Shown here: positions 10,621 through 34,401 of the stretch, piece after piece
How positions within the stretch are numbered: the stretch's first letter is position 1
Layout of the letters: each line of letters begins with the position of its first letter
Origin: an uncultured Chloroflexia bacterium
GTDB taxonomy: Bacteria; Chloroflexota; Anaerolineae; JAAEKA01
Length of the DNA: 64,000 nt
NCBI GenBank assembly: GCA_963707275.1
Contig: CAVPPH010000009.1
Location: forward strand, 31,432-95,431
Direction: 5' to 3'
Notes under the pieces: model-generated
What the model was told of the DNA's origin: nothing
The model's input: only the letters and a program-made list of their open reading frames with translations
The model's database searches: none
Made by a program: the position numbers and the translations under genes

Positions 10621-10766
10621 CCAGATCGCAATGGTTTACGCGATCTGGACTACTGCGTAGCGAAGAACGCGAAGCACGAGCGACGAGGCCACCTGGAACA
10701 ACAGCCTTTTGGCTTCGCGATCTTCCCGTTTCGTGACTTTCGCTCGCCTTCGTGGTTTCGTGGTCC
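10621..10766. repeat. hairpin plus imperfect CACGAA/TTCGTG 9-mer palindromic repeat
   Basis: ccagatcgc...gcgatctgg stem, then cgaagaacgcgaagcacgag ... tttcgtgac tttcgctcg ccttcgtgg tttcgtggt. Confidence 0.55.
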
Positions 10767-10794
10767 AAACTCTGGCTGATTTCCAACCCACCGT

Positions 10795-10823
10795 TGGACA
10801 AAAGACCGGTCAGCGACTATAAT
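10795..10823 (+). promoter_or_regulatory. sigma70-type promoter for uvrB
   Basis: TGGACA-17 nt-TATAAT. Confidence 0.7.
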
Positions 10824-10829
10824 GTCATA

Positions 10830-10843
10830 CGAACCGATGTTCT
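10830..10843. promoter_or_regulatory. LexA SOS box (GAAC-N4-GTTC)
   Basis: cGAACcgatGTTCt over the predicted uvrB transcription start. Confidence 0.75.
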
Positions 10844-10880
10844 GAAATCGACCGGCGCAACTCAGGGAACCAGACATTCT

Positions 10881-12991
<2,111 letters not shown>

Positions 12992-13004
12992 AATCGACCA
13001 TAAC

Positions 13005-14496
13005 ATGTGGCCCAATAACCCCGTACTCTACGAAATCAACACCTGGGTCTGGCTGGACTGAACTGAGCCGGCGGACAGGTGAACGCGTGACCCTGGCCAA
13101 CGTGCCGGAGGATGAACTGGACCGGCTGGCCAGCTACGGCTTCGACGGCTTGTGGCTGATGGGCGTCTGGCAGCGCAGTCCCGGCGGACGGCAGGTGGCG
13201 CGTCGACCATCCCGGCTTGCAGGGCGAGTATCGCAAGGCGCTGCCCGATTTCACCCCGACTGGATGTGGTCGGATCGCCCTACTCGGTCTACGACTACCG
13301 CGTCGATGAAGCGCTGGGCGGCGATGAGGGACTGATGGCATTCCGCCACCGTATGCGCGAGCGTGGCCTGCGACTGATGCTCGATTTCGTGCCCAACCAT
13401 CTGGCTATCGACCATCCGCTGGCGAGCTGAACACCCCGAGCGGCTGCTGCAAGGCAGCTCGGAGAGCCTCATTCGCCAGCCGGCCAACTATTTTGAGACG
13501 ACCGAGAACGGCCAGTGGCGAGTGTTTGCGCACGGCCGCGACCCCTCCTTCGGCGGCTGGACCGATACTGTGCAGGTTGATTACCGCACGCCCAAGCGCG
13601 CGCCGCGCGATGGCCGACATTCTGCTGGACATCGCTGGCCGCTGCGACGGCGTGCGCTGCGACATGGCGATGCTGGTGACGCAGGACACGTTCCTGCAGA
13701 CCTGGGGCGGCGTCAGTTCGATCCGCCGCGGGCCGAGTTCTGGCCCGCGGCAATCACCGACCTGCGGGCCAGCGTCATCCCGACTTCATCACCCTGGCTG
13801 AGGTCTACTGGGATCTGGAGTGGGACTTGCAGCAGCAGGGATTTGACTACACGTATGACAAGCGACTCTACGACCGGCTGGAGGAGGGAGACGCCTTGCA
13901 GGTCCGCTGGCATTTGACCGCGGACGTGGCGTATCAGCAGCATCTGGCGCGCTTCATCGAGAATCACGACGAGCGCCGCGCCGCCGAGGTGTTGGGCGTC
14001 GAACGCAGCAAGGCGGCGGCGGTGGTCGCTCTGACTTTGCCTGGACTGCGCCTGATTCACGAGGGCCAGCCGCAGGGTTGCAAGGTCAAGCTGCCGGTGC
14101 AATTGGGGCGGCGGCCAGAGGAGCCGGCTGTCGCTGGCCTGGAGGACTTCTACCGCGCCCTGCTGGCCGAGCTGCGCCATCCGATCTACCACGACGGCCG
14201 GTGGCAACTGCTGGAGGCGCGCATCAAGGATGACGCGCCGGATCTGCACCGTGGTCTGGCAGCGCATCAGTGGCGACTGGGCAGCGAATTTCGGGTAGTC
14301 GTCAGCAACCTGACAGGGCAGCGAACGCAGGGATTCGTGTCAATGGCGCTGCCGCTGGCCGGCGCCGCCTGGCAGTTGACCGAAATCTTCAGCGGCGCGG
14401 TCGTACGAACGCGATGGCGACGACATGACCGACCGCGGGCTGTTCGTCGACCTGCCAGCGTATGGCAGTCAGATTTTTAGTTTCGCACGGGCCTAA
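13005..14496 (+). CDS. GH13 alpha-amylase family protein; several frameshifts
   Basis: LYEINTWVWL, GSPYSVYDY, LMLDFVPNHLA, DGVRCDMAML, RFIENHDERRA. Confidence 0.85.
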
Positions 14497-17421: not shown

Positions 17422-20313
<2,892 letters not shown>

Positions 20314-20510: not shown

Positions 20511-20592
20511 TAGGGCGGGTGGGATTCGAACCCACACGGGTGTTACCCTTCGGTTTTTAAGACCGATGCGTCTGCCATTCCGCCACCGCCCC
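20511..20592 (-). tRNA. tRNA-Leu(TAA)
   Basis: GGGGCGG/CCGCCCT acceptor stem, GGCGGAATGGCAGACGC D-arm, anticodon loop CTTAAAA, long variable arm, GGTTCGAATCC. Confidence 0.95.
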
Positions 20593-20625: not shown

Positions 20626-20655
20626 ATGGCCTATAGCTCGCAAGCTATAGGCCAT
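20626..20655. other. perfect 13-bp hairpin in the tRNA spacer
   Basis: atggcctatagct-cgca-agctataggccat. Confidence 0.6.
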
Positions 20656-20663
20656 TCGTTCAG

Positions 20664-20735
20664 AGGCGACGGCCGGATTCGAACCGGCGATCAGGGTTTT
20701 GCAGACCCTTGCCTTAGCCACTTGGCCACGTCGCC
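20664..20735 (-). tRNA. tRNA-Cys(GCA)
   Basis: GGCGACG/CGTCGCC acceptor stem with U discriminator, anticodon loop CTGCAAA, GGTTCGAATCC. Confidence 0.96.
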
Positions 20736-20747
20736 CTGACACTGTGC

Positions 20748-20776
20748 ATTGTATCCAGCCGAACCGGACTTGTCAA
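20748..20776 (-). promoter_or_regulatory. sigma70 promoter for the tRNA-Cys/tRNA-Leu operon
   Basis: TTGACA-17 nt-TACAAT just upstream of tRNA-Cys. Confidence 0.8.
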
Positions 20777-20946: not shown

Positions 20947-22743
20947 TTACTGCGCCAGGCTGGCGATGTTGACGATACCGTTGCCGAGATACTCGTCCGG
21001 GTTGGGCGGTGGATTGACGCCTGCCCGTAGGGTCGATAGCACGTTGGCTGGCGCCATGCCGCTGTCCAGCATGACTGCTGCCGTGCCGCTGACCAGCGGC
21101 GCAGCGAACGACGTGCCGACCCAGTAGACATACTGGAAGCCGGGTTTGCCAGTCTCCTCGTCCAGACCGTAGGCAAAACCGATCAGGCAATCCTGCTCGT
21201 TGCCGGACTCACACCAGTAGATGTCGCCCGAATCGAGCAGTCCGGGCACCACACAGGTCGCCACGTCTCCAGCCTCGGTGGACAGGCTCTTGCCCGCTTC
21301 CATGGTCCGCGTGGTAAGGTTGACGCCGTTGCCGCCGGGCGCAGCGACGATGCCCTGGTTGGAGTAGCAGCCGCGCGTCTGTTCGTAGGTGCTGCCCACC
21401 ACACTGAGGACCGATGGATCGCTGGCGGGGATTTCGGCGTCTCTGGGCGCCTCGGCAGGCACGTTCACGTCCCACGAGTCGTTGCCCGCCGCTGCTACGA
21501 CCACGGCGCCCTGGCCGTTGAGCTTCTGCACCATGGCTTGCAGCGACGTAACTGACTTGGGCAGCGCAAGTGTACACTCTGGCTCATCTCCCGGACAAAG
21601 GTTCTCCGGACGGTGGACTCCCAGGCTGAGGTTCACGACCGTACCGGCCAGCGACTCCTCGAACGGCGCGTCTGAGTTGCTCAGCTCGCGGCTGGTCGTG
21701 TCCAGACCGCGCAGAATGGTCATCAGATCGCCGCAGCCGTCGTTTTCCAGCACGCGCATCAGGTGAATCTTGCTCTGTGGTGCGACCGCGTGCGCCAGGC
21801 TGGCTACGAAAAGCCCGTGGCTGCTGATATCCTGGATGATCGGATCACCCGTGTAGCGATCCAGCCCGGGGCAGGCGTCATAGTCCTGCACGGGAATGTC
21901 AGTTATAGTCATGTCAGGCGATCCGACGCCAGCTCCGCGCGTCGGATTGCCCATACGCCGCTCCAGCGCCAGATCGCCGGCGGGCAGGGGAGACGTGTCG
22001 AGAATGACAATCTGCGCGCTCTTCCCCAGGTTCTCCCGGACCTGCCGCTGACCGTCTTGTATCAGGCTGATGCCGGCTTCGCCCAACGCCCACTGTTTCA
22101 TGAACGCGGTCGAGTCGCCGGCGAGGCCCAGCCCGCCGCCGGGCAGGTTGCGCGCCCAGCGTCCGTTCTGCGTCCACGGGCTGCCGCCCCCGCGCCAGCC
22201 GGCCGGCGTGAAGAAATAGTTCGGGTCAGCGGCCGCGTCCAGCTCCGGGTGAGCAGCGGCGAACTGGTTGAACAGGCAGCTCACATCCTCGACCGAACGT
22301 CCGTCCAGAATGAACGCCAGTTGGATCGCTCTGCCCTCGCCCAACGATATCGCATCTTCGTCGTTGATGCGCAGCTTGAGGTCGAAAGCCTGGCTGATCT
22401 CCCGGAGTTGGTCCGGCTGTCCGGTCAGCACCACCTGGCTGTCGACGTAGATCAGCCCCTCGAAGGGTGAGACGACCATCTGCGCCTGTTTTTCACCGGA
22501 TTGCATCGCGTTGGGTTCAGGTATCTCAGCTTGCTTGTCTTTGCCGCGCTGGCTGTATTCCTGGCAGTAGGCTGCGATCTCCTCCACATCGCCGGATGGC
22601 GGCGTTACTTCAGTAGGCTGGGGGGTAGCAGTTGCGCCGGCCGGCGGTGGTGTCGGCGTGACGACCTGGCAGGATGTTGCCAGTCCGGCCATCAGCAGAA
22701 TGACCAGAATCAGGAATGCGGGACGGGCGTGTGAGTGTTTCAT
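20947..22743 (-). CDS. S8 (subtilisin-family) serine peptidase, predicted lipoprotein
   Basis: Lipobox LATSC; triad IVILDTS, SSHGLFVASL, GTSFAAPLVSG; oxyanion VAAAGND; RBS AGGAG. Confidence 0.9.
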   Translation of the reverse strand: MKHSHARPAFLILVILLMAGLATSCQVVTPTPPPAGATATPQPTEVTPPSGDVEEIAAYCQEYSQRGKDKQAEIPEPNAMQSGEKQAQMVVSPFEGLIYVDSQVVLTGQPDQLREISQAFDLKLRINDEDAISLGEGRAIQLAFILDGRSVEDVSCLFNQFAAAHPELDAAADPNYFFTPAGWRGGGSPWTQNGRWARNLPGGGLGLAGDSTAFMKQWALGEAGISLIQDGQRQVRENLGKSAQIVILDTSPLPAGDLALERRMGNPTRGAGVGSPDMTITDIPVQDYDACPGLDRYTGDPIIQDISSHGLFVASLAHAVAPQSKIHLMRVLENDGCGDLMTILRGLDTTSRELSNSDAPFEESLAGTVVNLSLGVHRPENLCPGDEPECTLALPKSVTSLQAMVQKLNGQGAVVVAAAGNDSWDVNVPAEAPRDAEIPASDPSVLSVVGSTYEQTRGCYSNQGIVAAPGGNGVNLTTRTMEAGKSLSTEAGDVATCVVPGLLDSGDIYWCESGNEQDCLIGFAYGLDEETGKPGFQYVYWVGTSFAAPLVSGTAAVMLDSGMAPANVLSTLRAGVNPPPNPDEYLGNGIVNIASLAQ

Positions 22744-22762
22744 TTCTTCTCCTAATAGTTTC

Positions 22763-25675
22763 TCAGATCGGTCCGCCGTCGCCGACAAGGAAGAACGGCG
22801 CCCAGAAGTAGGGGTGTGTGTAGGCGTCCGCCGGCAGCTCCGGCGCAATATGGCCGTTGATGAACTGCAACTGCGCCTGGCGCAGGGCGTCACCTTTAGT
22901 TGCGCCGCGCACCAGATGGCCGTAGAACGCGGTCATCAGCGCTGCGGTTGAGCGGTCCTCCACAGCCCACTGGCTGAGCACTAACGAAGACGTGCCGGCG
23001 GCGAAAAAGGCGCGCATCAGGCCCAGCAGCTCGTCGCCGCCGCCCACCACGTGCTGCCCCGTCTGGCAGGCGCTCAACGTCACCAGCGATGCGTTCAGTC
23101 GCAGGTTGAAGATGTCCAGCGTTGTCAGCCAACCCTTGGCCAGCGCCAGGCCGGAGAAGAGCGGATTGTCGGGGCGGAAGTCGCCATGCACCGCCATGTG
23201 CAGCACGCGCTTGCTGCCCGCGTCGGCCCGCAGCGCGTCGGACGTGGCGTCTTCCTCCAGATAGAGGTCGCCGTGGCAGAGATCGGCCACCAGTTGCGCC
23301 TCGTCCAGCGCGTGCGGCAGCCGGCCGCCAAAGGAATTGCCCAGTGCCAGCACACCCGCGCCGCTGCGCGGCTGGTCGCAGCAGAAGCGCAACAGGCTGG
23401 CCACTGGCAGCCGCGCCAGCTCGAATTGCTCCACCAGATAGCGCTCCCCATCGAACAGCGCCTGGAAGGGCAGGTAGTGCAACGCGCCGTGCGGCACGGC
23501 AATCAGCCGCCGGAAGCCTGCCAGTTGTGGTGCGACCGGTGCGACGAGCTGGTCATATAGTTGGCGCAGCACGCCGCGCGCGTTGCCGGTCAGGCCGGGA
23601 AGCTGGGCAAGCTGGCTGCCGGGCACAGTGGCGAAGTTGAGTTGCAGCCGCCGCAGACTGCGCCGCACGCTGTTCTCGGTCAGGTTCAGGCGGGTCGCCG
23701 TTACCGTCCGGTTGGTGACCACGAACGCCACAATGTCGGTGTCGGTCGCGAAGTATTCCAGCACGGCGGTCTCGTCGTCCAGCGCCGACTGGAACGGCTC
23801 CGTGTGCACCTGCCAAAGGGTCACGTCGCGGGCGTAGTCGGCGTTGCGCACCAGAAGCTTGTGCCAGAGCTGCGTCATCCGCCCCTCCAGCGCCACGACA
23901 TCGCTGCTCAGTGTCTGCGGTTCGTCGGTTTCTGTCCAGGCGTTGCGGGTCAGATCCGCGCTGCCCTGCCAGCGGCGATAGAGACGATCACGTTGCTCAC
24001 GCAACTGCTCCAGCTCGGCCACGATGCCCGCGTCGCCCGGCTTGCGGGCGGTCAATCCCAGATCCAGCTTGAAGGCCAGCATGTCCACCAGCGCGCGCGA
24101 TTTGGCCCGTTCGGCGTACTCCAACCCGCGCGCCGGGTCGTTCAGCTCCAGGCTGAGACGCAGTGCGTGCTGATACAGCGACTGCTTATCCTCCAGGAAG
24201 CCGGCCCGGTGCTCAACCATGGCGCGGCCGCGCAGTTGCTCCAGCGCCTGGATGGCAAGTTCGTAATGCTGGCGCGCTTCCTGGCGGTTTTCTTGCGCCT
24301 CGGCGTCCGCGGCCAGAATAGCGTGTGACTGGTGGGCCAGCTCCGCCAGCTTATGATGGTCGGCCGTCGCCAGTGCCTGGCGTGCCAGCGTGCGCGCCAG
24401 CGCGTGCTGGTTGAGCGTCAGCGCGGCGCGGGCGGCTACCAGCGCGGCCTGTGCCTGATGCACCGGCAGGTCGCGCTGTTCGAAGGCTTCGGCGCATTGC
24501 ATAGCCAACGCCAGGCTTTCGGCAGGCTGACCCTGTACCTCCAGCAGTGCAGCGCGCTCGATGTCCACCCGGTTCATCCAGACGAGGTTGCCTTCCGCCT
24601 GGAAGAAGGCGCGGGCATCGCTCAGAGCCTGAAACGCCAGGTCGATGCGTCGCAGTCCGATTTGTGCGACGGCTTCGTTGAGCAGCGCTTCGGCCACCTC
24701 GCGCTGGCGGCCCACCTGTGTGCAGAACCGGCGCACGTCGCGGCATTTGTCCAGCGCGTCGTCGAAGCGCCGCAGTTGCAGCAGGCAGTAGCTGGTGACC
24801 AGATCCGCCTCGATCGCGTCCACCGGACGTCCATCGGCCAGGAAGGTGTCGCGCGCCTGGTCGAGCAGCGAAAGCGCCTCGTTGAAGCGACCCAGCATGA
24901 CGTAGGTCGCGGCCAGGTTCTGCTGGACATGGCCGATCTCGGCCTTCTGGTTGGTGCGCTCCAGCAGCCGCAGGGCGTTTTCGTTGGCGGTGATGGATGC
25001 CTGAAACCGGCCAAGATTGCGCAGGACGGTGGCGCGGTCCTGTTCGACCAGCGGCAGCAGGCGTTCGCCGTCCGCGCCGAGGCGCAGGCAGAGATCGCGC
25101 GTTTGGTCGAACTCAGCCAGCGCGCGTGAGTCATCCCGTCGCCGCCCGTGGACCACCGCCAGATTCATCGAGAGGCTGGCCAGCGCGCGCCACTGCCCGT
25201 GCGTTTCGAGAATCGGTCGCGCCAGGTTGCCCGTTTCCAGCGCCTCTTCGTACTGGCCCAGCATGGCCAGGGCGAACACCTTGCCGACTGCCGAGCCGGC
25301 CTGCTCAGCCGTGCGCCCGTTCCGGTCATACAGAGCAGCCGCCTGGTCGTAAACGTCCACCGCGCGCGCATACTGGCCCAGCCCGCCGAGAGCCAGCGCG
25401 TTGGCTTCCGCCAGCAGCCCCAGCGCCCGGTCGCATTCGTCGTGGCGCAGCAGGCCAAGATGCTGCAACAGGTACGCCATGTCCAGCGAGCGCTGCACAT
25501 CGTCGCGCAGAAGCCGGTCAGCCTGTTGCTTGAGCTGGCTGGCGACGTCGTCACCCAGCGCCGGCAGGCTGGCCTCCAGCAGGGTTTTCTGAGTGTCGAG
25601 GTCTGGCAGCGTCCGCAGGCTCTCGATCAACTCCTGGGAAGTCATCGATCTGCTCAGGATGCGACCCCCAGTCAA
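22763..25675 (-). CDS. TPR repeat plus CHAT (caspase-like) domain protease
   Basis: About 500 aa of TPR-like helices, then LEYAERAKSRAL, LIAVPHGALHYLPF, LHMAVHG (His), LVTLSACQTG (Cys), SQWAVED and HPYFWAPF. Confidence 0.93.
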   Translation of the reverse strand: MTGGRILSRSMTSQELIESLRTLPDLDTQKTLLEASLPALGDDVASQLKQQADRLLRDDVQRSLDMAYLLQHLGLLRHDECDRALGLLAEANALALGGLGQYARAVDVYDQAAALYDRNGRTAEQAGSAVGKVFALAMLGQYEEALETGNLARPILETHGQWRALASLSMNLAVVHGRRRDDSRALAEFDQTRDLCLRLGADGERLLPLVEQDRATVLRNLGRFQASITANENALRLLERTNQKAEIGHVQQNLAATYVMLGRFNEALSLLDQARDTFLADGRPVDAIEADLVTSYCLLQLRRFDDALDKCRDVRRFCTQVGRQREVAEALLNEAVAQIGLRRIDLAFQALSDARAFFQAEGNLVWMNRVDIERAALLEVQGQPAESLALAMQCAEAFEQRDLPVHQAQAALVAARAALTLNQHALARTLARQALATADHHKLAELAHQSHAILAADAEAQENRQEARQHYELAIQALEQLRGRAMVEHRAGFLEDKQSLYQHALRLSLELNDPARGLEYAERAKSRALVDMLAFKLDLGLTARKPGDAGIVAELEQLREQRDRLYRRWQGSADLTRNAWTETDEPQTLSSDVVALEGRMTQLWHKLLVRNADYARDVTLWQVHTEPFQSALDDETAVLEYFATDTDIVAFVVTNRTVTATRLNLTENSVRRSLRRLQLNFATVPGSQLAQLPGLTGNARGVLRQLYDQLVAPVAPQLAGFRRLIAVPHGALHYLPFQALFDGERYLVEQFELARLPVASLLRFCCDQPRSGAGVLALGNSFGGRLPHALDEAQLVADLCHGDLYLEEDATSDALRADAGSKRVLHMAVHGDFRPDNPLFSGLALAKGWLTTLDIFNLRLNASLVTLSACQTGQHVVGGGDELLGLMRAFFAAGTSSLVLSQWAVEDRSTAALMTAFYGHLVRGATKGDALRQAQLQFINGHIAPELPADAYTHPYFWAPFFLVGDGGPI

Positions 25676-26404
25676 CTGACAGAAAGCGACTGAATGTGAA
25701 TCTCGACGTCCGATCCTGTCAGGATGAGCTCGTAGTCCCCCGGCTCAAGGCGGAGTAGCTCGAAGTTGCCGTACGCGTCGACTGCGGTGGTGGCGAGCCG
25801 TTCTCCGCCGCGCCATAGCTCCACCGACACGCCGTCCACTGCAGGCCCGATCAATAGCCCGGTGAGGGCAAATCGGTCGGGTCGGTCCAGGTCGCCGTCG
25901 ATCTCGACGACTGCACGGTACTCGCCGGCTTCAAAGGTTAACGGGCCGTCCGCGCTGCCGCGTAGTGCGGCAAAGGCGGGCATCATCGCCGGCTGACCGA
26001 GGCTGTTGAGGCTGCTGGCCAGCCGCAGCGATCAACACCTGGACGCGTTGGCCGAGCGGTTGAGGGCGCGACAATTCGACCACTAGATCGGGCTGCGCCA
26101 TGTACGCGTCGAGTTGGCGCAGCTCCACCGAGCAGTGCGGACACGCTGTGAGATGAGTTTCGATCTGGGCGGTTTCGTGGGCGGTTAGCAGGCCGATGCT
26201 ATATTCACCGAGTTGCAGAGAAGGAGGACAGGCGGACCGGAAGAGCGAGCCAAGCAGAGCAGAAGTGGTCTGGCGAAGCTGCTGGACGCTGGCAGTGCAG
26301 TCAACGCACTGGTCGATATGCCGGGTGGTCATGGCGTCAGTCTCGCCATCCAGATACATCAGTAAAGCGCCGTCGGGAAGTTGGGTAAGGGTGTCGCATG
26401 CCAT
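25672..26404 (-). CDS. soluble zinc-finger anti-sigma factor-like protein with C-terminal beta-sandwich; frameshift near 26030
   Basis: LLMYLDGE...HIDQCVDC and HLTACPHC motifs; C-terminal VELWRG...DAYGNFELLRLEPGDYEL; no TM segment; directly downstream of the sigma gene. Confidence 0.75.
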
Positions 26405-26452
26405 GAATATGTGTACTCCTTCTGTCACTATAAACGTTCTCAACGCCACATT

Positions 26453-27157
26453 TCAGGCAGCGACCACTAGCAAACTGACCAAGTCCTGATCGCGCCGCAA
26501 CCGTTCCAGCACGTTTTGCTTGGTCCGGTACACGTCTTTGATATCTTCGAACATCTGCGGCTGCGCTTCCATCAGTTCGGCCGGTTTCATGCCCAGTACG
26601 AAGGAAGCGTAGATGACGGCTTGCTCCTTCTCGCTGTTCAGCCGTTCCTCGATGAGATGCCAAAAGTGGCTGCGGTCGACGCGGGCAATGGTGTCTGCTT
26701 CGATGTCACCCGGCGCGGGCGCGACTCGCATCTCCTCGGAGTCGGAGCCTTCTTCGATCACTGCCAGCTCGCGGCCGCGGTTGAAATCGACGATGGCGCT
26801 GTTGCTGCACATCTTGAGGTATCGCAGCAGTGATTTGAGGTCGCCAAAGCGCGCGAACTTGGCCGGTGTGATCGCGTGCCAGAGCTTCTCGAAGGCCCGG
26901 TTGACGAAGTACTGCGCATCCTCGCCGGTGGTCGGGTAGGCGGGGTGCCGCTCGACCCAGCCTGCTACCAGTGGCACGTACTGGTTGAACAGGCAGGTGT
27001 GCGCCTCCTGGTTTGCGTCGACGATGGCTCGCCGGAACAACTCATAGCAATAGCGCGGATCGTATTCCAGACGCTTGAAGAACCGGTGGGTCTCTTCGCT
27101 ACAGCGATGGGCGATGCCTGCCAGCGTCAGAGACGAGATTTCTACGGAGTCAGTCAT
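26453..27157 (-). CDS. divergent ECF-type sigma-70 family factor
   Basis: Region 2-like EDAQYFVNRAFEKLW...LLRYLKMCSNSAIVDFNR; region 4-like EKEQAVIYASFVLGMKPAEL...VYRTKQNVLERLRR. Confidence 0.78.
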   Translation of the reverse strand: MTDSVEISSLTLAGIAHRCSEETHRFFKRLEYDPRYCYELFRRAIVDANQEAHTCLFNQYVPLVAGWVERHPAYPTTGEDAQYFVNRAFEKLWHAITPAKFARFGDLKSLLRYLKMCSNSAIVDFNRGRELAVIEEGSDSEEMRVAPAPGDIEADTIARVDRSHFWHLIEERLNSEKEQAVIYASFVLGMKPAELMEAQPQMFEDIKDVYRTKQNVLERLRRDQDLVSLLVVAA

Positions 27158-27205: not shown

Positions 27206-27234
27206 ATTATACAACTTCCAGTCGAAGATGCAAG
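27206..27234 (-). promoter_or_regulatory. possible sigma70 promoter for the sigma/CHAT operon
   Basis: Minus strand CTTGCA-17 nt-TATAAT, about 50 nt upstream of the ATG at 27157. Confidence 0.45.
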
Positions 27235-27414
27235 GAAGCTGCCATTTCCGGTTGCTTAAGGCTCCCTTAAGGTCGAATTCATACTGGCTTGAGAAATGCC
27301 TGCTATGCTTCGGTTTGATGCAGGTGCGTGGTGTAGAGGGCGGAGTTCTGCCCCCTCCGCGGCACGGTAGACCGCATCGATGTATTGGACAGATATTGTT
27401 GGAGGTATGAGGCT

Positions 27415-29628: not shown

Positions 29629-29680
29629 CGCTTCTGGCAGCCACTGCAGCTCAACCATGCGGCTTGCTCCCGGCTGGGCT

Positions 29681-29828
29681 GCCTCGCTCTGGCCGGTCTC
29701 CGACCGAGCCAGCTGGCGTAACGTCTCGCTACCGGCACGGTCGGAGACCGGCCGGAGCAAGTATCAGGACCTGGCGTAACATCTCGAAACCGGCACAGTC
29801 GGAGACCGGCCGGAGCAAGTACCAGGAC
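29681..29828. repeat. cluster of GGTCGGAGACCGGCC elements: one inverted copy plus two 58-bp tandem copies
   Basis: 29713-29770 and 29771-29828 are near-identical; inverted copy at 29681-29713; related copies at 3378 and 58991. Confidence 0.8.
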
Positions 29829-31627: not shown

Positions 31628-32191
31628 ATGAGGGTGTCAAACTGGACAACCGAGTCGGAGAACCATATTCTCCAACTTGCTAAAGCCTACGACGTCACTG
31701 CACTAGCTGCGATTTACGACAACTACGAAGCAAAGATCTACAGCTACATCTACCATCGAGTAGGCAATCAGTTTGTGGCTCAAGATCTGACGTCGCAGGT
31801 TTTTCTCCGCGTCCTCGAATCCATCCAGCTCGATCGTGCCTGGGAGACGTCGTTTTCTGGATGGTTGTATCGCATCGCTCACAACCTGGTCATTGACTAC
31901 TATCGCCGCAGGGGACGCACCACCCAGGTTTCTTTGGATGACATGTCAGAACTGCACTCGAAAGGTGAGAGCCCGGAGAGCGCGGCCGAGCGGGCAGTGG
32001 CTACCGAACGGCTGCGTGTTGCGATCAACCGCCTGACTGAAGAACAGGCGCAGGTCGTCACTCTTCGCTTTCTCGAAGGAATGAGCATTATCGAAGTCGC
32101 CGACAGCATGGGCAAGACCGAAGGCGCCATCAAGGCGTTGCAATACCGCGCTGTCTCGTCGCTTCGGCGCATTATGGAGGCTCAGGCGTAG
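31628..32191 (+). CDS. ECF sigma-70 factor (SigW/RpoE-like)
   Basis: AQDLTSQVF, FSGWLYRIAHNLVIDYYR, LTEEQAQVVTLRFLEGMSIIEVA...GAIKALQYRA. Confidence 0.93.
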   Translation: MRVSNWTTESENHILQLAKAYDVTALAAIYDNYEAKIYSYIYHRVGNQFVAQDLTSQVFLRVLESIQLDRAWETSFSGWLYRIAHNLVIDYYRRRGRTTQVSLDDMSELHSKGESPESAAERAVATERLRVAINRLTEEQAQVVTLRFLEGMSIIEVADSMGKTEGAIKALQYRAVSSLRRIMEAQA

Positions 32192-32193
32192 TC

Positions 32194-34401
32194 ATGGCAG
32201 AGATCGAAGCCATCTTCGACGCCTGTCTCCTGAAGCTGGAGACGGGCGCAACAATCGAAGAGAGCTTGCACGGGCACGCGGCCGAGCAGGCGGAGATTGC
32301 TCCGCTCCTGCAGGTTGTGGCTGCCCTGCGATCTTTGGCCGATCCGGCCCCGGTGCGCGCTGAGCAGTCGCTGTGGGCGACGCGCTCGGCTTTCCTGGCC
32401 GCAGCAGGCGCGGTTCGCGACGCCGTGCCGGTTCCGGGCGAGGATGCCTTCGAGGAAAGTCTGGCTATGTTGGCCGCCGGCGCGACGACCGATGACTGTG
32501 CCGCTGTCTTTCCGAAACAAGCGACGGAACTTCGTTCGTCGCTTGACGTTGTGCAGGCATTGCAACTGGCGTCCGAGCCTGCTCCGCAGCGGGACGCAGC
32601 GCAGATCGCCAGCCAGCGGCAGGCGTTCCTGGCGGCTGCCCGTGAACAGGCGCGCCAGCAGCGCGAGCCAGGCGGATTGGCCGCAGCTCTGGCTGGCTTG
32701 TCGGCGCTGTTCCGGCAGCCTGCCTGGCGCGCCGTAGCGGTCATCTTTCTGCTGGTGGTGACCTTCTTCGGGGTTGGCGGCGCCACGCTGACGCTGGCGT
32801 CCGATGCGCTGCCGGGCGATCCGCTCTACCCGGTGAAACTGGCGGCCGAGCGAGCACAGGTGGCGATCACGCTGGACGATGGCGCGCGAGTGCAGTTGCT
32901 GGAGACGCTTGACCAGCGCCGCAGGCAGGAGGTTGACGCGGTGGTGGGCGCCGGTCGCCAGATCGAGGTCCAGTTCCCGGGAACCATCGAGTCGATGCTG
33001 GACGGCGTCTGGACAATCAGCGGGATGGCTGTGCCGATCTTCGTGCCTGGCGACGCCGAGGTGATCGGGATGCCGGCCGCTGGACGACAGGTCCTGGTGA
33101 CCGGCTACTCAGATGGTCAAGGAAGGCTGATCGTGCGCCGGGTGATCGTCTTTGGCGGCGATGGCGATGGTGCGCCGCCGCCAACGGCCACCGCGACCAA
33201 CACTGCAACCCCGGCGCGCGCGATCGTGGTTCCCGTGCGCCCGCCTGACACGCCGACTGCCAAGCCGCGCCCGACCGACACAAATGTTGGGCGGGCGACC
33301 GTCACTGCGACTGCAGCCCTGACGTCCACGCCAACTCTCACGGCGACCTTGACGTTGACGCCGTCGCTGACTGCCACGCCAACCACGACGCCGTCGGGAA
33401 CTTCCACGGTGGTTTCGCCTACGCCTACGCCGACCCTCGGAGCATATCCTGGGACCCGTTCTGGACTGATCGAAGAGATACACCAAGATTGGTGGCTGGT
33501 GAACGGCTTCCGCGTTCTCGTCAGCCCCGCCACGATAATCGACGACTCGTTGGGACCGGCTGAAGTAGGATCCGAGGTTGTGATCGAGGGTATCGCGCTG
33601 CCAGATCCGCCGGCATTTCAGGCTGTGCTGATTACTGTCACGCGGTCCAATCTGGAGTCAAAGGACTGGACTGGTGTTATCTACTCGAAGAGCGGCGCCA
33701 TCTGGCAGATTGGTGATACGACCGTCGATGTTTCTGGTGCACGTATCACCGGTACGCCGCTGATCGGAGCTACGGCCTCAGTCATTGCCAAGCGACGTGC
33801 GAACGAGATGTGGCGTGCTACCAACGTTGATGTCGAGAATGTCGACTACGTGCCTGTTTTCGGCACTATTGACTCAATATCTGGAAGTATCTGGGTTGTA
33901 GATGGCACCACGGTCAATGTCTCGGGCGCGGATTTTACCGGCCTGCCTCCTGCGGTTGGGTTATATGCAAGCATCGATGCCATTCAGAGTGGTGGACAGT
34001 TGTTTGCCGTCACCGTAAACGTCGTTGCTCAGACTGTAACGCCGACGTTCACTGTTACAACCGGAGCGCCGACTGCAACGCCAACTGGCACGCCGGGAGC
34101 GCCGACTGCAACGCCGACCGATACGCCGGGAGTGCCGACTTCGACACCCACCGGCACACCGGGAGCGCCGACACCAACGCCTACGCCCGCGCCACCGACG
34201 TCAACTCCTACGGTGGAGCCGCCAATTCCGACCAACACGCCGTCGAATCCAACGGCTACGTCAACACCGATCCCTCCAACGCCCCCTATTCCGACGTCGA
34301 CTCCAGTGCAGCCGCCTCCCACAGCGACGTTCACACCGTTCCCCACACTGCCTTTCACACCGCCGCCGCCGCCAACTTTCGAAGCGCCTGTATCTGGCTG
34401 A
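32194..34401 (+). CDS. membrane anti-sigma-like protein with DUF5667 and DUF5666 repeats and Pro/Thr-rich linkers
   Basis: Starts 2 nt after the sigma stop; TM, LPGDPLYPVK (DUF5667), repeated G-x-I-x-x-x...W-x-V-x-G units, PT tracts. Confidence 0.78.
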   Translation: MAEIEAIFDACLLKLETGATIEESLHGHAAEQAEIAPLLQVVAALRSLADPAPVRAEQSLWATRSAFLAAAGAVRDAVPVPGEDAFEESLAMLAAGATTDDCAAVFPKQATELRSSLDVVQALQLASEPAPQRDAAQIASQRQAFLAAAREQARQQREPGGLAAALAGLSALFRQPAWRAVAVIFLLVVTFFGVGGATLTLASDALPGDPLYPVKLAAERAQVAITLDDGARVQLLETLDQRRRQEVDAVVGAGRQIEVQFPGTIESMLDGVWTISGMAVPIFVPGDAEVIGMPAAGRQVLVTGYSDGQGRLIVRRVIVFGGDGDGAPPPTATATNTATPARAIVVPVRPPDTPTAKPRPTDTNVGRATVTATAALTSTPTLTATLTLTPSLTATPTTTPSGTSTVVSPTPTPTLGAYPGTRSGLIEEIHQDWWLVNGFRVLVSPATIIDDSLGPAEVGSEVVIEGIALPDPPAFQAVLITVTRSNLESKDWTGVIYSKSGAIWQIGDTTVDVSGARITGTPLIGATASVIAKRRANEMWRATNVDVENVDYVPVFGTIDSISGSIWVVDGTTVNVSGADFTGLPPAVGLYASIDAIQSGGQLFAVTVNVVAQTVTPTFTVTTGAPTATPTGTPGAPTATPTDTPGVPTSTPTGTPGAPTPTPTPAPPTSTPTVEPPIPTNTPSNPTATSTPIPPTPPIPTSTPVQPPPTATFTPFPTLPFTPPPPPTFEAPVSG
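34060..34190 (+). repeat. 33-bp coding tandem repeat (GAPTATPTGTP)
   Basis: GAPTATPTGTP GAPTATPTDTP GVPTSTPTGTP GAPTPTPTP. Confidence 0.7.

Follow-up and report, generated by a model that had tools for sequence, protein, structure and literature searches.

A conserved cassette of sigma factor, zinc-type anti-sigma factor, TPR-CHAT protease and S8 subtilase in Anaerolineae-type Chloroflexota: a candidate protease-gated sigma-factor switch

The stretch of DNA analysed here, hereafter called the window, comprises 64,000 nucleotides (nt) of contig CAVPPH010000009.1 from an uncultured Chloroflexia bacterium (assembly GCA_963707275.1; 5.7 Mb in 15 contigs, 85% complete), whose named relatives are metagenome-assembled genomes of Caldilineales and Anaerolineae. 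On its minus strand, at 20947-27157, lie four co-directional genes, encoding in this order a divergent sigma factor, a soluble anti-sigma factor of the zinc-binding anti-sigma (ZAS) type, a caspase-like protease that joins tetratricopeptide repeats (TPRs) to a CHAT domain, and a subtilase of the S8 family. This four-gene arrangement recurs in related genomes far beyond chance and is inherited as a unit. The locus forms a chromosomal operon, complete in itself, of Chloroflexota of the Anaerolineae type; judging from the sequences of its parts, its most likely role is that of a protease-gated sigma-factor switch, a reading to which we give about even odds. The four genes are as follows.

26453-27157, minus strand: divergent sigma factor of the sigma-70 family, 234 amino acids, with the two-domain architecture of extracytoplasmic function (ECF) sigma factors in its AlphaFold2 model and Foldseek matches
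25672-26404, minus strand: soluble ZAS anti-sigma factor (zf-HC2, NF052375), 244 amino acids when one extra base is left out
22763-25645, minus strand: TPR-CHAT caspase-like protease (CHAT, TPR_12), 960 amino acids from the ATG at 25645
20947-22743, minus strand: S8 subtilase lipoprotein (Peptidase_S8, with its triad), 598 amino acids

The tight packing described by the initial annotation of this DNA holds at these coordinates, with a gap of 48 nt from the sigma stop codon (26453) to the anti-sigma ATG (26404), a gap of 19 nt from the CHAT stop (22763) to the S8 ATG (22743), and no terminator-like site on the operon strand inside the cassette. The same annotation had joined the anti-sigma and CHAT genes by a TTGA overlap; the overlap does exist, in that a TTG at 25675 overlaps the anti-sigma stop and offers an alternative CHAT start, but the protein probably begins at the ATG at 25645, because alignments of the homologs start only at residue 8-11 and the gene of a near-identical strain (L144; loci are cited by L numbers) starts 26 nt past the stop.

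Co-occurrence of the genes in other genomes was a test that the initial annotation had set beforehand, and the outcome was strongly positive. All three homologous neighbourhoods compared (L001-L003; sigma identity 59-82%) hold the identical four genes in the identical order, and among 20 diverse genomes from the phylum, 11 have a full-length TPR-CHAT homolog adjoining the sigma and anti-sigma genes, with S8 in addition in 7 of these 11. A wider sample of 401 genomes of the phylum gave a sigma homolog in 75, and a scan of species-representative genomes gave 327 loci, the best 80 of which were analysed. These best 80 all belong to Chloroflexota (Anaerolineae, Caldilineales, Ardenticatenales, Promineifilaceae and Thermoflexales); about 60 of them carry the cassette in identical order, nearly all that have sufficient downstream sequence place the four genes on one strand, and S8 is always the last gene. 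When all open reading frames (ORFs) of 71 loci were clustered, exactly four conserved families emerged, namely sigma, anti-sigma, CHAT and S8, with no fifth conserved gene; htrA, uppP and SIR2, which flank the cassette in the window, are syntenic in close relatives only. Since the flanks vary while the four families stay constant, it is the cassette itself, not its surroundings, that is kept.

Within the window genome the cassette is present as a single copy, and it is widespread in the lineage. A sigma paralog on another contig (C6, 25% identity) has no CHAT or S8 gene adjoining it. CHAT-domain matches number 16 in this genome, clustered on contig C4 (355-387 kb and 510-525 kb) and found also on C1, C2, C15 and C6; some are split or carry a stop, and solely the CHAT gene of the window is linked to this sigma factor. 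At three paralogous loci in other Chloroflexota genomes (L099:11544-12416, L110:11436-12395 and L111:11497-12402) a protein with an APH(6)-like kinase fold follows the sigma and anti-sigma genes in place of CHAT and S8, a replacement which suggests that the third gene of such loci is an exchangeable input module.

The arguments below refer to five smaller features, all read on the minus strand.

27206-27233, minus strand: housekeeping-type operon promoter, TTGCAT, 16 nt, TG-TATAAT (extended -10), read from the sequence
26027, minus strand: one surplus base, a minus-strand T, which breaks the anti-sigma frame, from alignments with relatives
25957-25968, minus strand: A-L-R-G motif closing the disordered loop of the anti-sigma factor, a candidate cleavage site, from alignments
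23066-23188, minus strand: CHAT catalytic dyad, His820 (23186-23188) and Cys860 (23066-23068) in the 960-residue numbering, from alignment
22099-22230, minus strand: S8 prodomain/catalytic junction, with ADPNY, the heptad SPWTQNG and degenerate Trp-containing units, ending before FMKQWAL

The sigma factor had been called an ECF sigma, and this assignment holds by fold and architecture and does not hold by sequence models. No Pfam family matches at E<=0.1, and the general sigma-70 model TIGR02937 reaches 22.8 bits (E 5.8e-5), below its cut-off of 42.9 bits, so that by sequence, where group 4 (ECF) would be recognised from region 2 and region 4 models scoring above threshold, the protein falls outside the group. 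A profile of its family finds ECF sigma2 domains in the PDB no better than at E 0.03-0.08. The AlphaFold2 model (predicted local distance difference test, pLDDT, 83) shows sigma2- and sigma4-like helical domains separated by a disordered linker (residues 131-153), and among the Foldseek matches listed nearly all are sigma factors (SigL, SigK, SigH, SigE, SigW and AlgU), some of them ECF sigmas in complex with their anti-sigmas. Fold together with an adjoining anti-sigma gene, here one of the ZAS type 48 nt downstream, does place the protein in group 4. The family is sharply delimited: we collected 534 homologs, nearly all of 234 amino acids, and a profile search of 1.84 billion sequences gave 2478 cluster representatives. 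Three cysteines, Cys19, Cys37 and Cys117 (27101-27103, 27047-27049 and 26807-26809), are invariant or nearly so; two of them lie in an N-terminal extension, and together they might give the sigma factor its own metal or redox centre. The C-terminus (26453-26470) reads LLVVAA, which recalls an ssrA-like tag for degradation by ClpXP; LLAGAA or LLAAAA stands there in close relatives, and distant homologs differ.

Several features place the anti-sigma protein among ZAS-motif proteins: it matches PF13490 (zf-HC2) at 22.3 bits (cut-off 22.2) and NF052375 at E 7e-15, it contains two tandem C-x25-H-x3-C-x2-C units (C3/H29/C33/C36 and C59/H84/C88/C91), and its profile finds RslA (E 4.8e-4), ChrR, DdvA-Nt and RsiW through the second of these units. 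The first is degenerate in some members of the family, e.g. in L100. Behind the ZAS units come a conserved strand (VLIARL) and then a disordered loop, and the protein closes with an immunoglobulin (Ig)-like beta-sandwich, which gives generic Ig-like fold matches only and a weak match to CarboxypepD_reg (PF13620). In the AlphaFold2 model of the L144 protein (pLDDT 86) loop residues 134-150 fall below 50, and the Arg-Gly at the end of the loop is nearly invariant across the family. On the strength of this model and of the alignments, the exposed loop with its Arg-Gly, lying between the presumed sigma-binding ZAS part and the Ig-like domain, is a plausible candidate cleavage site, in parallel to Csx30, the protein cleaved in the CRISPR-linked Craspase system. 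Loss of the Arg-Gly in loci that lack CHAT was tried as a marker and did not discriminate: L099, L110, L120, L121 and L131 all keep the pair, and L111 is the only one to have lost it. The solubility of the anti-sigma factor, asserted in the initial annotation, is borne out by 79 homologs, which have no hydrophobic segment.

The same annotation mentioned no break in the anti-sigma gene, and in this assembly 25672-26404 is not an open frame. The extra base at 26027 breaks its 733 nt into two ORFs, 25931-26449 and 25672-25986; this base is absent from L063, L065, L143, L144 and L146 (the last three being near-identical strains); the anti-sigma factor is a single ORF in 58 of 59 loci. Elsewhere in the window, gyrA (17422-20292, plus strand) switches frame repeatedly, over seven or more segments, and uvrB (10752-13335, plus strand) is split into several overlapping ORFs. 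This pattern suggests that the assembly contains many erroneous indels of one base, or else that heterogeneity is unusual here. Because the relatives are intact and both gyrA and uvrB are broken in the same window, the extra base is most likely an assembly error, i.e. an indel in the consensus.

The third protein matches CHAT (PF12770) at E 6.3e-65 and TPR_12 at E 1e-17. Its dyad is intact, as had been noted from the motifs HMAVHG (His820) and LSACQTG (Cys860), and it is invariant in 61 full-length homologs, of which 59 have no hydrophobic N-terminal segment, as expected of cytoplasmic proteins. A search of PDB sequences with the TPR-CHAT protein returned Csx29 CHAT domains only (E ~7e-6), and the Csx29 model NF041237 reached 40.3 bits, over the CHAT domain only, against a cut-off of 300, so the protein is not a Csx29 ortholog. 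With no array in the window and no Csx29 match above this cut-off in the genome, the earlier description of the operon as standalone and free of CRISPR (clustered regularly interspaced short palindromic repeats) stands.

The fourth protein is a clear member of Peptidase_S8 (PF00082; 60.3 bits against a cut-off of 21.8, E 2.4e-16), and its catalytic residues, reported intact from the sequence alone, are conserved: D249, H309, the oxyanion residue N421 and S545 are each kept in at least 93% of 45 homologs. Its signal peptide has a lipobox (LATSC, Cys25) and is followed by a Pro/Thr-rich linker, the prodomain, the junction cassette and the catalytic domain; a hydrophobic N-terminal segment, in many cases with a lipobox, occurs in 38 of 52 homologs. 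The junction holds a heptapeptide cassette, a feature newly found here and beyond the account of the initial annotation. In 31 of the 52 homologs two to six identical heptads matching SP[WFY]xxxG stand in register between ADPNY and FxxQWAF (e.g. PWGPEGS six times, PWSVEAS four times, PFEVGGS three times and PNSTGGS four times), and they are lineage-specific even among close lineages (PWDPTGS, PWEPTGS, PWVATGS); in the window and its nearest relatives a single heptad, SPWTQNG (22162-22182), is conserved, and the units beside it contain Trp but are degenerate. Copies within one protein are identical in amino acids, and a mean of 2.97 of their 7 codons differ, all synonymously (114 pairs). Differences that are synonymous only speak for selection on several identical peptide units and not for recent slippage.

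A second cassette type was also seen (L103, L123, L130, L132, L134, L135 and L136, and, after reorientation, L047, L050-L052 and L055). In these divergent cassettes S8 has no signal peptide, most have a conserved SPNWL...GGPGGRP junction and no heptad repeats, and the CHAT protein is more divergent (~31% identity); CHAT type and S8 localisation thus shift together between the two types.

The switch that we propose would work as follows. The ZAS part of the anti-sigma factor would keep the sigma factor inactive until a signal bound at the TPR region turned on the CHAT protease, which would then cleave the anti-sigma factor in its exposed loop, probably at the Arg-Gly preceding the Ig-like domain. 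The leftover N-terminal fragment would be destabilised and degraded, as with Csx30, and the freed sigma factor would guide RNA polymerase to its regulon. Because the two proteases co-evolve, S8 is likely to be tied functionally to CHAT, and it might serve as the principal output of the switch or else supply its signal.

Covariation among the four proteins, measured over 32 loci whose S8 is exported by partial correlation of the pairwise distances of the proteins, is weak evidence but fits such a chain, running from S8 through CHAT and anti-sigma to sigma. The strongest pairs were sigma with anti-sigma (partial r 0.56; 0.56-0.66 across analyses) and CHAT with S8 (0.45; 0.45-0.73 across analyses), followed by anti-sigma with CHAT (0.27, p ~0.004), sigma with S8 (0.26), sigma with CHAT (0.17) and anti-sigma with S8 (0.07). 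With sigma distance controlled, CHAT covaries at 0.34-0.38 with the Ig domain of the anti-sigma factor and at 0.19-0.23 with its ZAS part.

The operon promoter, TTGCAT-16-TGTATAAT, is of housekeeping type and is conserved in L063, L064 and L065; it was missed by a consensus scan because its -35 element is weak. In many other loci the sigma gene is preceded by a comparable TTGAC-N17/18-TAnAAT or TGnTAnAAT promoter, and an extended -10 is frequent among these. A housekeeping-type promoter implies that all parts are probably made constitutively, with the switch held ready.

Several observations weigh against the proposed switch. Upstream of the sigma genes, dyad enumeration and inspection found housekeeping-type promoters only and no ECF-type autoregulatory promoter, and neither a sigma-dependent promoter nor a regulon was found. 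The strongest covariation of CHAT is with S8 and not with the anti-sigma factor, a point overlooked in the initial annotation; the anti-sigma correlation is modest, and mirror-tree-type correlations are in any case confounded by shared history. The Arg-Gly is kept in two of the three kinase-type paralogs, L099 and L110, which have no CHAT, and, being kept in loci without the protease, it may be structural and not a cleavage site. S8 is exported in this clade and cytoplasmic in the divergent cassettes, and no single role fits both easily. Finally, the anti-sigma frame as assembled here is broken.

The heptapeptide cassette opens a more specific version of the switch, one that we put forward tentatively and hold to be unlikely, in which S8 would not only process the peptide signal sensed by the TPRs but also be its precursor. 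Heptapeptides would be freed outside the cell during S8 maturation and re-imported, and the CHAT protein in the cytoplasm would bind them through its TPR region; in this peptide-bound form it would cleave the anti-sigma factor and release the sigma factor. What is observed is an exported protein with multi-copy heptads under purifying selection, a cytoplasmic TPR protein, and no linked permease. In the RRNPP family (Rap, NprR, PlcR, PrgX) cytoplasmic TPR receptors bind short peptides that are exported and re-imported, and in yeast the alpha-factor precursor contains several identical peptide copies that are released by the S8 protease Kex2. The likeness to either is one of resemblance only: here the copies lie inside the protease itself, and the receptor would be a protease in place of a transcription factor or phosphatase. 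A partial Mantel comparison of heptad and TPR distances gave no significant covariation (r 0.12, p 0.06). If the peptide version is right, filamentous Chloroflexota would possess a cell-cell or autocrine peptide circuit with a caspase-like protease as pheromone receptor, and to our knowledge little cell-cell communication has been described in these organisms.

The anti-sigma factor, with its two complete C-H-C-C motifs, might instead be the sensor itself, responding to thiol oxidation or zinc loss as RsrA does, and the proteases would then be co-transcribed effectors or outputs, not regulators, serving for instance in extracellular protein degradation or protein quality control. Such an arrangement would account for the three conserved cysteines of the sigma factor, for the export of S8 and its constant position as the last gene, and for the persistence of the Arg-Gly in loci that lack CHAT. 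It agrees less well with the promoter, which is of housekeeping type with no recognisable sigma-dependent one, so that the proteases are not obviously sigma-controlled outputs, and with the degenerate first ZAS motif of some members such as L100. A 960-residue TPR-CHAT protein with an invariant dyad would moreover be an unusual passive cargo, CHAT co-varies with the Ig domain of the anti-sigma factor, and in the comparable pairings of ECF54, DdvA and Craspase the protease is the regulator (PMC8999054, PMC11506125, PMC10028731). We consider a sensing anti-sigma factor unlikely.

That CHAT covaries most with S8, the strongest non-trivial covariation of the data set, raises the further question of whether the true substrate or partner of CHAT is S8 or the sigma factor, the anti-sigma factor being regulated separately; CHAT would then dock on or process the S8 precursor at the heptad junction before export, or degrade the sigma factor. 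The joint change of CHAT type and S8 localisation, and the position of the heptad cassette exactly at the S8 processing junction, would suit a contact of this kind. The Sec-type lipoprotein signal of S8 would, however, allow only transient contact with a cytoplasmic CHAT, the covariation between heptads and TPRs did not reach significance, and the correlation between CHAT and S8 may reflect no more than their transfer as one module, so that we judge this alternative distinctly unlikely.

The weakest alternative, an anti-phage or programmed-cell-death module in which the TPRs would detect a phage product and CHAT would trigger defensive or suicidal transcription as in Craspase and DdvA, had been raised in the initial annotation, and, although the known links between TPR-CHAT proteins and sigma factors (Craspase, DdvA and type III-B SAVED-CHAT) are all defence related (PMC10028731, PMC11506125, bioRxiv 10.1101/2023.06.23.546230), and the host genome is rich in CHAT genes, we find it without support and very improbable, given the housekeeping promoter, housekeeping flanks, conserved synteny in relatives with no mobile-element genes adjoining, the lack of cas genes or an array, a PADLOC run with no match beyond a generic subtilase, and a cassette that is single-copy in this genome and widespread in the lineage.

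The flanks in question comprise gyrA, two tRNA genes, htrA, uppP, a SIR2 deacetylase, a CDP-alcohol phosphatidyltransferase (the phospholipid synthase of this neighbourhood) and a second, canonical ECF module, and close relatives keep the synteny around the cassette. This context fits a constitutively made, post-translationally controlled device; a mobile defence island does not fit.

Viewed against described systems, the cassette is a well-defined variant of a known theme, represented by ECF54, DdvA and Craspase. The ECF54 group and its gene context were treated by Casas-Pastor et al. in 2021 (PMC7826278) and reportedly by Huang et al. in 2015 as well. In ECF54 of Actinobacteria the sigma gene adjoins genes for CHAT, subtilase and carboxypeptidase(-regulatory)-like proteins, and proteolytic control has been proposed with no experimental work (PMC8999054, PMC7826278); the group is said to have no anti-sigma factor (PMC8999054). 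The likeness lies in the gene context as described, with PF12770, PF00082 and a weak PF13620 found on the three products downstream of the sigma gene and conserved there. In contrast to ECF54, the present loci belong to Chloroflexota, the domain resembling a carboxypeptidase forms the C-terminal end of a protein recognisable as a ZAS anti-sigma factor, and S8 is exported and carries the heptapeptide cassette. The scan with the sigma factor gave no locus outside Chloroflexota among the 80 best genome loci and no match in the plasmid collection. Two Streptomyces CHAT loci considered as relatives turned out to be unrelated, one being a CATRA conflict system and the other adjoining a RES-family gene.

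In DdvS/DdvA of Myxococcus xanthus an ECF-type sigma factor is held by a CHCC ZAS domain linked to a TPR-CHAT with a His/Cys dyad (PMC6061681, PMC11506125); cleavage by CHAT has been proposed as the release step, RseP is needed, and the regulon is an island of CRISPR and CBASS (cyclic-oligonucleotide-based anti-phage signalling system) genes (PMC6061681, PMC11506125). DdvA combines ZAS domain, transmembrane helix and periplasmic TPR-CHAT in one polypeptide, whereas here these functions are on separate genes, with no hydrophobic segment in the anti-sigma factor or in 59 of 61 CHAT homologs; the CHAT protein is cytoplasmic, the anti-sigma factor has two ZAS units and an Ig-like domain, the cassette includes S8, and a defence island is absent. 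In Craspase, Csx29, activated when Cas7-11 binds target RNA, cleaves Csx30 in its C-terminal part, leaving an unstable N-fragment (PMC10028731); the N-terminal part of Csx30 binds CASP-sigma, and Csx31 also belongs to this arm (PMC10028731). Common to both is a TPR-CHAT with a His/Cys dyad encoded together with an ECF-like sigma factor and an inhibitor, but the inhibitor here is a ZAS protein and not Csx30, an S8 protease is present, there is no Csx29 orthology, the window has no CRISPR array, and, with four families alone conserved over 71 loci, there is no association with Cas7-11. A fourth case is the CRISPR-linked type III-B SAVED-CHAT, in which CHAT reportedly starts a proteolytic cascade upon sensing cyclic oligoadenylate via SAVED (bioRxiv 10.1101/2023.06.23.546230); the present cassette differs in its TPR sensor region and in having no CRISPR.

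The literature searched held nothing on this cassette in Chloroflexota and nothing joining TPR-CHAT with subtilisin, and CHAT, subtilase and sigma factor together led only to the ECF54 review. The claim of a candidate new system was nevertheless too strong, since the ECF54 context had been catalogued with proteolysis proposed and DdvA/DdvS already links ZAS with TPR-CHAT (PMC8999054, PMC7826278, PMC11506125). What the cassette adds are new handles, namely a recognisable anti-sigma factor, a candidate cleavage loop and the heptapeptide cassette, the last of which is a specific one and hints at peptide signalling in filamentous Chloroflexota. If the proposed switch is real, TPR-CHAT proteases would control sigma factors as free-standing chromosomal devices across a lineage, beyond CRISPR add-ons or a single myxobacterial anti-sigma factor, and the ECF54-type context would gain a concrete, testable model.

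Some smaller features of the neighbourhood deserve mention. One is a stretch of ~45 nt (27255-27300; GCATTTCTCAAGCCnnTATGAATTCGACCTTAAGGGAG) that lies in the gap from htrA to the sigma promoter and is conserved in L063 and L065; the genome holds no second copy of it, the search returning the block itself and one match with three mismatches, the htrA-sigma intergenic region has no Rfam match, and the block may represent either the promoter of htrA or an operator. Directly downstream of S8 lie the two tRNA genes (20511-20592 and 20664-20735, minus strand), which have a near-consensus promoter of their own (TTGACA-17-TACAAT, 20748-20776) and a terminator-like hairpin (20626-20655). The second ECF sigma factor (Sigma70_r2/r4; module at 31628-34401, plus strand) is followed 2 nt later by the gene of a 735-residue DUF5667/DUF5666 protein, and close relatives preserve the synteny between this module and the cassette. 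A 58-bp tandem repeat (29713-29828; two copies, 91% match) between uppP and SIR2 overlaps a sub-threshold match to the mraW RNA (29678-29770). In L066 and L067, finally, a long 5' leader separates the promoter from the sigma start; ~40-120 nt upstream of the sigma genes it contains a hairpin, GC-rich and conserved (GAGGAGTTCGCACGC...GCGAACC...CTCCTC), which may provide extra post-transcriptional control in that subclade.

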